A stretch of 64,000 nt of DNA, taken from Perkinsus olseni (taxonomy: Eukaryota). Position numbers and translations under genes: made by a program. Under the pieces are notes generated by a model that had not been told where the DNA came from, did no database searches, and saw nothing but the letters and a program-made list of their open reading frames with translations. The stretch spans positions 1 to 64,000 of the forward strand of contig JABANN010000106.1 of the NCBI GenBank assembly GCA_013115125.1, read 5' to 3'. This document shows, piece by piece, positions 36,255 through 62,780 of this stretch. Position 1 is the stretch's first letter. Each line of letters opens with the position of its first letter.

Positions 36255-39200
36255 TCAACGCAACCCGCCGAGGTACTGTAAACTCGTATCAAGGGATCAC
36301 TACAAAGAGGTTTCCTCCCATAAAGTTACCACTCCTAACGTTATCAGTTCGGTCTACTGTACCCTTTACCGCCTTGATAGTACTGAGTCAGCGGACCTAC
36401 AAGGCGCCGAGCTAATTTCGTGGCGCGCGACATTACCCGACTCTACCTCCCTTCTGCCTCTTGGACGGGTCATAAGCACCAATATCGTACGGCCGCTTGT
36501 ACCTAGTCAGAGCCCTCCAACACACTCCCCCCTCAACCACCCGCCACCCCTCTTACGCGTAGTATTGCTGTTGCTGTGGTCCCCCATTGGCATACCCCTT
36601 GCCACCCGATTGGTATCTGATAGAGCTAGAGGTGTCAGAAAACCCCACCAGTAACTCCGCCACCGCTCACCCTCTCTGATACTGACCACCCACAGGCCCT
36701 CGACCAGAAGCTGGATTGTCTGAAAGGGTATCGTTGGGCGTGCGCTTCGACTGCCATTCCTCATCGGGTTCGAAACCAGCCATCACTTACATCTAGCATG
36801 GTACGGTCCGCTATGCTGCTGGTAAGACTGGTAGCCGCCCTTGCCACTCCGAGAGTAGTCGACTCTCCTCCCTCCTCCCTTTCCTCCGCTGTAGTGCGAC
36901 ACCACCGGTTGGATGACCATCAACTTAGCACTCTCATCACCAGCAGCAATCCTAGCCTCCCTCTCCCTTCTAGCCGCCTCCGTGAGCCGTACAAAGGTCG
37001 ATAACGGCGCATCAATATCATGCACTGCCTTCAAGACACCATCCTTATCGATCATGATCGTATCAACCAGCAGAGTATCCAAGATCTGATCCAAGCTGTG
37101 CGCACCGTAAAGAGACGGAACCAGCACGCCCCTCATAACGTAGGTTTGGTAATAGTGCTGCAACAGGGACTTATGAATTCCCTTGAGGTCGGCATCCTGT
37201 GACGTAGCGTCGCGCTCAAAGGCATGGCACAGGAGGTGTAGCTCGTAGCAGAGGTTCATCAACTGCCAGTCCACCAGCTGGAACTTGGCGAACAGCGGCG
37301 TCTTCTTGGCATCGATATCACATACATCCTCCGGCACCCACACGTCCACCTCCGCGGGAGCATCCTCCATCTTCTCATCTGGACCTGTGCATGCGTGCAA
37401 AATTCCTACAAAGCTTGTCACCCGGATTCAAGTACATGCGTGCAAAAGGCGTACCGTAACTTCCCCAAGTAATCATCATCCAATACCCCCTCACCTTCAG
37501 TCTTTTTCTCTTCCCCCTTCTCCTCTTCCTCCTGCTCCTCCTTCTTCTCACTTCTAGCCTTAGCCTGTTCCTCCTGGTACAGCCTCTGAGCCTTCCTCCA
37601 CTCCAACTTGGTATTCATCCAGGCCTCCATCTGCTGCTTGAACCAATCCGTCGGTCCCGTGATGCTCGGCACCTTCTCCAAGACCTTGTGCGACTTCACC
37701 CATGCTTCCAGCCTCCTACAACAAACCTCTCACCATGACCGCTGCGCCACAAAATTCCCTACTGAGTCGCGGCGGCCTTCTTCTCCCACACAAAATTGAT
37801 ACTATCGAAAGCCTGCAGTCCACGAGGTGTCTTCTCCGTCTCTTGTGGTAATGTGAACGACAAGTAACACTCCGACAAAGCCTTGTGGCTGATATCACTG
37901 AAGGGCATCTTCCTGTAGCAACCCTCAGACCTGACAACACACGCTCCCCAACATTTCCCACCGGTAGAGTCGAAAGGAAGCACCGCTAGAGCACAACCTA
38001 CAGTTGCTCTTCACGAACCAGATTAGCGGTGCGACTATCCTCAACATTCTCAACCCGCCTAACGAACAACGTGATCGTTCTTATTCCCTAGGACAATACA
38101 AATCAGAGAAGCGTAGTGCATCGAGTGCCACTAGCACTTAGAAGCACGCTGATAGCAGCTGATCAATGTAATACGATCTTGTTGCTAAGTTTACACCACA
38201 CCAATGGTAGAGAACGATTGAAACAGGACTACTCCATCGACTATGCCGGATACGCCTATAGCCTACAGCCGCAAGCTCACCGAGCGCAGCGTGGCACTTG
38301 ACACATCCTACGTTTCACTACCACCCACAATTGTTTATGCTAGTCCCCCAACACCCAGCCCTACAGTCGTTGCTTTATCTCTTCATCAGTGACCTCTGTT
38401 GGTGGCAGTGTCGGCTCGGGCTCTTCTTCCTCTTCCTCCGCCTCTTCCTTCGGGGCCTCCTCCTGCAATACAAAGGTGCTCTCTCATCCCAGACTATCAC
38501 CTCACTTCCAAAATCATTCACCATAGCGATACTCAGCCACATACATCGTACGACTGCCGTCACGCCCTCTCTCCCCAGTGGGGAGAGACTGGGGAGTCCC
38601 CAGTGGGGAGTCCCCACCCCACCTTTTTTTCCTCAACAGGAGCTGGTTGCATCTTCTGGTCATCCTCCTCAGTCTTCGCCTCGTCCTTCCCCTCATCACC
38701 AGCTTCCTTAGCAGTAGCTGCTGCTGCTTCCTCTCTCTTCTTCCTCGCGTCCTCCGCGGCCTCTATGCGAGCCCTCTCAGCAGCACGGGCAGCTTCACGC
38801 ACTACCACAGGAAATATCAGTCAGCTGCCCTATGCCGCCTCCCAACGAGACCAATATTCTATCATATTAAGGCGTCTTTGCCCACCGCCCGCAGGGCCAG
38901 TCGATCCGTATTTACCCACCCAGGTTCGATCCCTGCAGCCTACCTTTCTTCGCTCTCTCCCTCTCCATTTGCCTAATCTTGTACTCATGCTTCAACACAT
39001 TCAACTTTCTCTCCCGTTCCAACTCCTTTTCCGCGAAGATCTCCCCCCTCACTATATCCTTCACATACGCAGTGTAATCAGCTGCGGGCTTACCAACACA
39101 TACGACCGCAGTACCTACAGTAGCAGCAACAGCAGCCATACCGTCACAATAGGAATTCATCGTTCTCCAGAAACTGAGTTCTCTGCCGCGCAAATTTACA

Positions 39201-61100: not shown

Positions 61101-62780
61101 CGGCGGTCTCCGGAGACTATCTACTACACCGGATGCGGTCGGTCATCGGGCTGCCCTCGCGTTTGGTATTCGCTATGCCACGGAGCCCCTCGCATGGATA
61201 GTTGGGCTGTCATGCGTGAATTTCATAGTTCCCTCAGGACTCTGTTATACTAACATCAAGTGGCGATGCTCTGGTAGTAACCAATGTTGACCAGTGAGTA
61301 TCGCATCTCAAAAGATTCTCAGTGAGTTAACCTTCTAGGCCACTAACTTTTTCCAGATCTTCTCGGTACTCAACACCCGGCACTACTCGGGACCCGTCAG
61401 CCCGCGTATCGCCAGTATCTTTGCAGTCCCTGATGCTGCGGCGCCGAGGCAGTAGGACGAGAGTAAGAAAAATCCCGTTACTTGACTTGGTCGTTTGGAT
61501 GCCTTATTCGCTCAGGTTTCGGCGGGTCATAGGTTGGTAGTGCCAGATGAGTATCTTCGGCACGCATGCACAGAATCTATAGGCTGCGCAACTCGGCCGG
61601 TGAGTGTTTATCACCTCTATCTTCCACTGCTCCTCACACCTCGACAGGCGTTCTCGGTCTGTTGATCACGCGAGCAATCCCCATTGCACGAGTTTACTCG
61701 CCACTGGTCCTCCTGAATGCGAAGTATTCTGTGTTCTCTTGAATGGTCTCAAAGTCGCGAAATTACTGATTTCGGTTTCTACCTGAGAGGTTAGCGGGAA
61801 GATATGAGATTGACCCACCCCCCTCTAGAAGGAGCCGACGCATTCGATGCATGCTATCGCCGCCATCAATTTCTTTGCGACCTGTCATCTCCAATTTTCG
61901 GTTGAGCTCCGCTGTCTCATTCTCAGGTGCGCAAGTCATGGGTGGAGAGATGTCCTTCGCTATGTGACCCGACAGCAGCTGAGCTGCGTCGCCGTTCGTT
62001 GGACAAGGGGAATCCTTTCGTAGGCAACTGGGGTAAGCCAAAGGTCGCGGGTTCGACCCCACCAGTCTGCGTGTTCCCCACATATCGTTGAGTATATCGA
62101 AGTCTTGTTCAGCTCATTCCCCGCCAGCCGAGCCTATGGTGTCTCTTCGAGTCCTCTCTACTAATGGGGGCATGGAGGCGTCGCCGAAGGCTAAGAGGAC
62201 CGTTGGGATGCTGCCTGGAAGAGCCGCTTGCTTGTAGATATGTTCGTACGACCCGATACCATAACTTCCTGACTTCCCGCGCGATCGAGGCTCACCTCTG
62301 TTAGTTTGATGTCTTGATTGTATGCGGAGCGGGAAACGATTTAGTGCCTGTCTGCTGGACTTCATTCTGTCTCAATATGATTTGTTTTCACCGTGTAGAG
62401 TATCTTACGGTCGAGCGTGCTGGATACAAAAGAGGTTAGACCTGAGCCGATGCTGTACATACCCACAATCGCCCTTTGTAACGTCTCAGACTTTTCTTTG
62501 AATTCGATATAATTCTGTTCCAATTCAACTTTTCACTTTCTATCACTCTCCCAGCCACTTGCGTTCTCATGTACAGTCGTCTTTAATCAAACACTAGATG
62601 AGGCCACTATGCCGCGTGGCTCTGCGGCCTCATTTTGGCGTGTTGGATTTCCCCGTTACAGGTTGTGGGAGTGCTGGCTGGCGTGTATCTTCGGGCCCTA
62701 GCTGTTCGGTCGTCTGCAGCGGATATTAGGTTCATCTCAGTTGTACGTATATTCCTTAACTTTACACTACTGTTACTAAC

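Follow-up and report, generated by a model that had tools for sequence, protein, structure and literature searches.

The hallmark of extra-TFIIIC (ETC) sites, as found in yeasts, is a B-box that has been retained as a DNA element; such sites, and comparable B-box-only TFIIIC sites, lack the A-box half, contain no complete tRNA and act at the DNA level independently of orientation. Tracts of tRNA-related sequence with a B-box are also found in both orientations in introns as tRNA-derived short interspersed elements (SINEs) and their relics, such as MIR. Introner elements, as in Micromonas and Aureococcus, are repeated modules, in either orientation, that can each constitute an entire short intron and that occur across unrelated genes. 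Introners of Amoebophrya are described in the same terms in the available part of the paper devoted to them (PMC7789003), a part that holds nothing on tRNA-like introns of Perkinsus. For this genus, the accessible sections of another report describe hundreds of tRNA gene copies in Perkinsus marinus and tRNA-targeting Dada transposons, elements of 4.7 to 11 kb whose insertion site is the A-box (TAGCTC) of a real tRNA gene and for which no location in introns is reported there (PMC3706591). Here, we analyzed a 64,000-nt window of Perkinsus olseni (GenBank assembly GCA_013115125.1, contig JABANN010000106.1, positions 1 to 64,000), in which 20 elements of about 40 nt resemble the 3' half of a tRNA and nearly all fit within introns. 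They resemble ETC sites in having a B-box but no A-box half, no complete tRNA and no fixed orientation, with DNA-level action being putative in this case; they differ in that they lie in short introns of protein-coding genes, are dense, are near 5' splice sites, and carry AGGTC and a T-run in register. What they have in common with the Dada system is the genus, in which that system shows a genome with abundant tRNA genes and tRNA gene (tDNA)-associated mobile DNA (accessible sections of PMC3706591). Searches of the main text of published papers yielded no connection between spliceosomal introns, of Perkinsus or any other organism, and sequence of the tRNA-like or B-box kind.

The half-tRNA motif was strongly enriched in the window. 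Exact matches to the B-box consensus GGTTCRANNCC occurred 12 times, compared with a mean of 1.14 in 100 shuffled sequences, where the largest count was 5 and 12 was never reached; 2 of the 12 were inside real tRNA-Cys genes and 10 were elsewhere. These 10 non-tRNA sites were used to build a 23-nt matrix that spans the variable loop and the T-arm, and at a cut-off score of ≥14 it returned 19 matches against 0.575 expected (40 shuffles, maximum of 3). The matches consisted of the 10 training sites, which are circular, the 2 tRNA-Cys genes, and 7 independent sites; because the matrix was trained on its own matches, unbiased figures come only from the count of exact motifs and from the 7 independent matches. 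A regular expression for the variable loop plus the B-box gave 16 matches against 1.05 expected. When B-box strings were sorted by mismatches, there were 12 with none (0.99 expected) and 34 with one (26.1 expected; standard deviation of 5), and no excess was seen in the window with two; motif scores were bimodal, and neither the matrix scores nor the mismatch classes showed a visible tail of half-decayed motifs. An artifact of chance or composition has virtually no probability: the training of the matrix on its own matches speaks for it and nothing further does, and it would have to yield the 12 exact matches that none of the shuffles reached, together with 7 independent matrix matches and 2 real tRNAs where 0.6 were expected. 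The enrichment is real, and chance is refuted. A first-pass annotation of this DNA had reported recurring tRNA 3'-half strings; 13 of its 16 sites scored ≥14, one (40204) scored 13.7, and the remaining two (46196 and 57569) scored below 10 and were tRNA-like by eye only. Four further elements (332, 5838, 8299, and 44292) brought the non-tRNA total to 20, with a density of approximately 1 element per 3 kb in the window.

A GT-AG intron could be fitted to 19 of the 20 non-tRNA elements, with support from RNA contigs in 6 cases, from annotation or homology in 5, and from prediction only in 8. RNA contigs from four public runs mapped on 42101-62100 and contained many short GT-AG introns of 43 to 270 nt, in agreement with the statement, in the available part of an earlier paper, that Perkinsus introns are mostly <100 bp (PMC3101222); 15 of the 76 RNA joints on this range were displayed. 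In the coatomer beta gene (approximately 52.3 to 58.8 kb, minus strand, homology-guided model), joints in four of four runs removed three introns with elements in the sense orientation, all on the minus strand: the 85-nt intron 54194-54278 (core at 54208-54237; score of 15.9), the 57-nt intron 54388-54444, which is filled by its core (54406-54435; score of 27.7) and has the donor GT 9 nt before AGGTC, and the 68-nt intron 54508-54575 (core at 54544-54573; score of 27.5), whose donor GTAGGT overlaps AGGTC. On the plus strand, the RNA had a loose end at 62032 and resumed at 62113 in four of four runs, which delimits an 80-nt intron (62033-62112) with a sense core at 62042-62071 (score of 26.2) and again a GT 9 nt before AGGTC. 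Two further cases came from g2 (42.1 to 48.6 kb, minus strand), which lies in tandem with its paralogue g1 (36.3 to 40.5 kb, minus strand). One run (X15) joined 44982 to 45109, the loose end at 45109 matching 44973-44982, so that the intron is the 126-nt segment 44984-45109, with an antisense core (45076-45105, plus strand) 4 nt from its donor; a 43-nt intron at 45063-45105 was ruled out by the same match. Additionally, the RNA contig pieces of four runs ended at 44274, where P0002 has a 15-residue gap, and both observations fit a 45-nt intron, 44278-44322 (minus strand), that is filled by an antisense core (44284-44313, plus strand; score of 15.5); a "tac" ambiguity at this intron also permits CT..AC borders. 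The elements thus lie inside genuine GT-AG spliceosomal introns, and the three coatomer beta introns with joints, together with 62033-62112, are removed from the RNA with GT..AG borders, as expected of the U2 type.

None of the 13 elements in the modeled genes (coatomer beta, g1, and g2) was inside a coding exon of the models, and elements occupied 3 of the 15 displayed RNA-supported introns of coatomer beta, or 4 of the 29 modeled ones. Relative to the host gene, 11 elements were sense and 8 were antisense (n = 19), and in both orientations they tended to start close to the donor, at a distance of ≤10 nt in 12 of 19. In introns as short as 45, 48, and 57 nt, the module makes up almost the whole length, and element-bearing introns are not some 45 nt longer than other introns. 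The first-pass annotation had placed the strings inside introns where exons could be reconstructed, usually next to a splice site, in sense as well as antisense, and filling most of a short intron in some cases; its remark on the two orientations proved accurate.

All elements have the same order of parts, from the variable loop through GGTTCRANNCC and an acceptor-length spacer to a run of T's. AGGTC was exact in 12 of 20 and TT was present at positions 74-75 in 11 of 20, and the T-run about 12 nt after the B-box ends the element, whose total length is only about 40 nt. The three real tRNA genes of the window, Cys(GCA), Arg(CCT), and Cys(GCA) at 17999-18498 (plus strand), served as internal controls, and none of them has a T-run directly after position 73. 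The cores GGTTCGAACC and GGUUCGAACC are nearly palindromic, and because of this part of the motif in GGUUCGAACC is the same in either orientation; an unusual TTCTA loop is common to three copies. A regular expression for the A-box and D-arm gave 5 matches in the window versus 4.47 expected, of which 2 were real tRNAs and none adjoined an element. A-box/D-arm-like strings outside the real tRNAs were seen at 115 (plus strand; TAGCTCAGTGGATC) and 876 (minus strand; TAGCCGAGTGGATC), and their number is within chance. The outer T-stem pairs were formed in 26 of 57 cases (0.46), compared with 0.44 when the partners were swapped between copies (P = 0.41), and a full 5/5 T-stem was found in 0 of 19 elements, even when other loop lengths or offsets were allowed. 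The real tRNAs of the window had 9 of 9 outer pairs. The partial pairing of the T-stems that had been noted by eye is therefore what the counts show as well.

These pairing values also bear on a possible role at the RNA level, in which a tRNA-like T-arm in the intron RNA would be used for processing by tRNA enzymes, for small RNAs, or as a splicing signal. The elements are transcribed within pre-mRNA, and the near-palindromic core presents part of the motif alike in both orientations, which speaks for such a role. However, T-stem pairing is at the level of chance, both orientations occur (11 versus 8), and the fold z-scores of nine introns ranged from +1.44 to -1.89 (7 of 9 above -1), no better than those of shuffles, compared with -2.73 and a cloverleaf for the tRNA-Cys control. 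The Rfam tRNA model was likewise silent, with no match at an E value of ≤10 on 54150-54620 (471 nt) or on 57545-57670 (126 nt). We consider an RNA-level role very improbable. Across the window, ARAGORN and the Rfam tRNA model found only the three genes at 17999-18498. With relaxed thresholds, the 74 to 177 calls of ARAGORN were only noise, most of them containing huge "introns", and a full-length tRNA considered in 57562-57653 was unsupported by the Rfam tRNA search. Overall, the elements are degenerate tRNA 3' halves and not tRNA genes, as they are without the A-box half and without T-stem pairing. The presence of the B-box consensus without an A-box or full tRNA is what ETC-like sequence would look like. 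The tRNA-derived SINEs, in contrast, consist of a head that contains both an A-box and a B-box, followed by a body and a tail; the Perkinsus elements have no A-box head, no body, and no tail resembling that of a long interspersed element (LINE), and they measure about 40 nt and fill introns of 45 to 57 nt.

Outside the invariant motif, the mean pairwise identity of the copies was 0.33, in keeping with the earlier remark that they differ from one another. Family structure was weak but significant (permutation test, variance P = 0.003), and within the 64 kb examined the similarity among copies was confined to the tRNA-invariant motif, apart from one pair, 4600 and 54229, with 0.67 identity at non-motif columns. 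The paralogues g1 and g2 have introns at common positions and phases at 39539|46229 (phase 0), 38361|45109 (phase 2), and 38943|45634 (phase 1), and they have a common acceptor at 40192|46882; at each of these common sites, an element is present in one paralogue only, with 46229 being a weak case. Six homologous g1/g2 intron pairs had no detectable similarity (P values of 0.27 to 0.83), which means that neutral intron sequence has been randomized since the duplication. With the positions in common and the element in a single copy, the elements at these sites are either younger than the duplication, having entered existing introns or replaced their content, or kept by selection. Judged from this comparison of sequences, the paralogue-shared introns were not made by recent tRNA capture, and they would predate the recognizable elements unless selection has preserved the elements. 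The first-pass proposal that introns are born by capture of tRNA fragments thus fails where it is testable.

The paralogue result also bears on an introner-like origin, in which a mobile half-tRNA module would create or replace introns and bring its own donor, the ends of the unit being the splice sites. In sense copies, the GT at tRNA position 35-36 would serve as the donor; in antisense copies, the ..YAC trailer would do so when read as its reverse complement. Four sense introns in three genes start with GTARGNNNA-AGGTC at identical spacing, the donor GT being exactly 9 nt before AGGTC, and in the two pairs compared the first 33 nt were 67% and 76% identical by hand count. Of the 8 antisense copies, 6 started at a distance of 0 to 9 nt past the donor, and the 45-, 48-, and 57-nt introns are almost all module. 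An introner-like unit accounts best for the unvarying distance from the donor and for modules that take up a whole intron. The first-pass statement that the donor GT falls near the anticodon is correct for these four introns as to position; the same 9-nt spacing would also follow from the donor consensus together with a minimal intron. However, for three to four of the introns with an element, the ancient paralogue has an element-free intron at the same position and in the same phase, which is not recent gain at new positions and conflicts with an introner-like origin unless the motif is also under selection. Furthermore, the copies are too diverged for a recent burst, 7 of the 19 introns have the module at a distance from the donor, and no clear terminal repeats or target duplications were seen at the exon junctions, as judged by eye only with no formal search. 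Compared with the described introners, the Perkinsus elements are tRNA-derived and highly diverged, show no inverted or direct repeats by eye, and in at least three cases are at introns older than the recognizable element. An introner-like origin is, in our judgment, unlikely.

The interpretation that we favor, and hold tentatively, is that the elements are B-box-only tDNA relics that act at the DNA level as putative ETC-like sites within gene bodies. Copies would have originated in tDNA-like sequence and undergone turnover among introns that already existed, and the B-box would have been kept as a DNA element, putatively bound by TFIIIC without RNA polymerase III (Pol III). The introns are saturated with changes and the stem partners are randomized, and the B-box and AGGTC are near intact; from this we infer that the motif was kept as a DNA element. 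Similarly, the unpaired T-stems, the dissimilar copies, the minimal introns, the absent A-box half, and the occurrence of both orientations favor a B-box retained as a DNA element. The first-pass suggestion of an orientation-independent B-box site acting at the DNA level is compatible with the findings and gains indirect support from the presence of the B-box half only, from a motif that is kept although T-stem pairing is at chance level, and from the lack of an RNA structure signal; its TFIIIC part is putative.

Alternatively, the elements may be neutral relics of one or more short tRNA-derived repeat families that were copied into pre-existing introns, with the B-box having no role at the present sites. 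The sources may have been 5'-truncated pseudo-tRNAs, SINE-like retrocopies, or tDNA filler from break repair, and the bias toward introns may result from exons being intolerant and intergenic DNA being scarce. The tDNA features are in register, including the T-run, a 1-mismatch class is present, there is some family structure (4600/54229 at 0.67 and the three copies with the TTCTA loop), and elements occur in a single copy at paralogue-shared introns, all of which would suit such relics, as would a genus rich in tRNA genes and tDNA-targeting Dada transposons (accessible sections of PMC3706591). However, young copies of real tRNA genes should retain the T-stem, and pairing is at chance; a few degenerate masters should give similar copies, and non-motif identity is only 0.33 with weak family structure. 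Neither is there the tail of half-decayed motifs that would be expected, and simple insertion should add about 45 nt, whereas complete cores are found in 45- to 57-nt introns. The position at the 5' splice site in 12 of 19 introns is not explained either. We regard neutral relics as a possible but somewhat doubtful account.

Several points weigh against the B-box being retained as a DNA element. AGGTC and the in-register T-run are outside the B-box proper, and their conservation points to tDNA origin and ancestry rather than to selection of a binding site. The 1-mismatch class and the relatedness of copies outside the motif are as expected of a decaying repeat family, and TFIIIC binding does not account for the tendency of sense and antisense copies alike to lie close to the 5' splice site. 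Eight of the host introns rest on a splice-site matrix and open frames from a crude predictor, the 23-nt matrix is partly circular, the matrix scan found no element between 8.3 and 36.7 kb besides the real tRNA cluster, and the sample is one 64-kb window. When about 1 element per 3 kb is extrapolated over tens of Mb, the genome-wide figure becomes 10^4 or more. Perkinsus genomes could then contain thousands of B-box-only modules, mostly approximately 20 nt 3' of donors, that are selected as intragenic TFIIIC-type elements, or the remains of a tRNA-derived introner family behind at least a tenth of introns, a generalization that we consider rather unlikely. If it is true genome-wide, about a tenth of the introns in an intron-rich alveolate parasite contain a recognizable Pol III promoter element. 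TFIIIC sites within genes would then form a new and dense class in a lineage that neighbors the dinoflagellates, whose chromatin is unusual, or, on the other alternative, this would be the first tRNA-derived intron-forming or intron-replacing element, and it would bear on the turnover of short introns and on the role of B-box-only sites.

The remaining elements of the paralogues were distributed as follows. In g1, a core at 36759-36788 (plus strand) is antisense, 2 nt from the donor of a 71-nt intron (36720-36790, minus strand), and the open reading frame (ORF) downstream after splicing resembles the C terminus of g2. The public model P0003 ends at a stop within the donor GTAAGTGA (36786-36790, minus strand), and since splicing of this intron opens the g2-like C-terminal region, P0003 looks truncated. 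[quoted passage not shown] A sense core at 39314-39343 (minus strand) lies in an intron with uncertain borders (39228/39115-39362), and the core with the score of 13.7 (40205-40234, plus strand) is antisense in the 66-nt intron 40192-40257 (minus strand), whose acceptor is homologous to that of the g2 intron 46882-46930. In g2, the weak tRNA-like string at 46192-46221 (minus strand; score below 10) is sense in a 56-nt intron, 46174-46229 (minus strand), and the alignments of P0002, P0004, and P0011 skip 46174-46226. A sense core at 47926-47955 (minus strand; score of 26.9) fills a predicted 48-nt intron, 47917-47964 (minus strand), with the donor GT 9 nt before the variable loop, and the core with palindromic GGTTCGAACC at 48167-48196 (plus strand) is antisense in a predicted 77-nt intron, 48127-48203 (minus strand).

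In coatomer beta, the other weak string (57566-57595, minus strand; TTCTA loop and score below 10) has the sense orientation and occupies the 3' end of a 92-nt intron, 57562-57653 (minus strand), a segment that, if read as protein, is missing from coatomer homologues. On the plus strand, a sense core with the TTCTA loop (60694-60723; score of 20.7) is in a predicted intron at 60669-60748 or a longer variant, with uncertain borders, and another sense core (60985-61014; score of 20.9), with GT 9 nt before AGGTC, is in a predicted intron at 60976-61031 or extending to 61083. Near the start of the window, the core of site 4600, from the variable loop to the discriminator (4592-4621, plus strand; score of 17.0), is antisense in a predicted 51-nt intron, 4579-4629 (minus strand), and that of site 5838 (5817-5846, minus strand; score of 17.3) is sense in a predicted 93-nt intron, 5799-5891 (minus strand). 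Site 8299 has an exact B-box (8291-8320, plus strand) and a matrix match on both strands (8299/8308), and its host intron is uncertain, perhaps 8194-8356 (minus strand). The core of site 332, with the TTCTA loop (311-340, minus strand; score of 17.0), has no assignable host intron.

The window has a base composition of approximately 53% G+C, and the exon 39743-40186 (minus strand) had 99 to 100% identity to NCBI Perkinsus olseni proteins across the aligned 55% of the query. The de novo gene predictor recovered 11 of 16 known introns unaided and 13 to 14 of 15 with homology, and codon usage was too weak a signal for exon calling in the window. The homology-guided models of coatomer beta, g1, and g2 still retain some in-frame introns, and a search for COPB homologues did not have the species' own protein among its matches. 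In coatomer beta, RNA loose ends define an in-frame 51-nt intron (58203-58253, minus strand) through which ORF-based models read, and a 308-nt RNA joint (53741-54048, minus strand) is at odds with the homology model. The proteins of g1 and g2 are approximately 49% identical outside a tract of 479 nt (39727-40205 versus 46417-46895) that is 96.5% identical at the nucleotide level and probably reflects gene conversion. The end of this tract approximately coincides with the start of the tRNA-like element of g1 (40205). A g1 intron contains a series of short repeats, some inverted and some direct, at 38540-38625 (plus strand), with units of the type ccccagtgggga. Outside these genes, a single-exon ORF of 902 residues (32671-35379, minus strand) had no Pfam match at an E value of ≤0.01 and contains serine runs and a cysteine-rich C-terminal part; its nearest Atlas clusters were of the FASTK/RAP/RESC6 type, and it is similar to FASTK/RAP proteins from lineages of the Apicomplexa type. 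At 21533-21848 (minus strand) there are three C/D-box snoRNA-like units in tandem, with SNORD14 matches of 35 to 44 bits, below the gathering score of 64. Finally, RNA contig loose ends at 48555 and 52160, in minus-strand genes, match, in reverse complement, the 3' end of the Perkinsus spliced leader as given in the available part of PMC3101222, and these positions are likely the trans-splice acceptor sites of g2 and a dual-specificity phosphatase gene, respectively.

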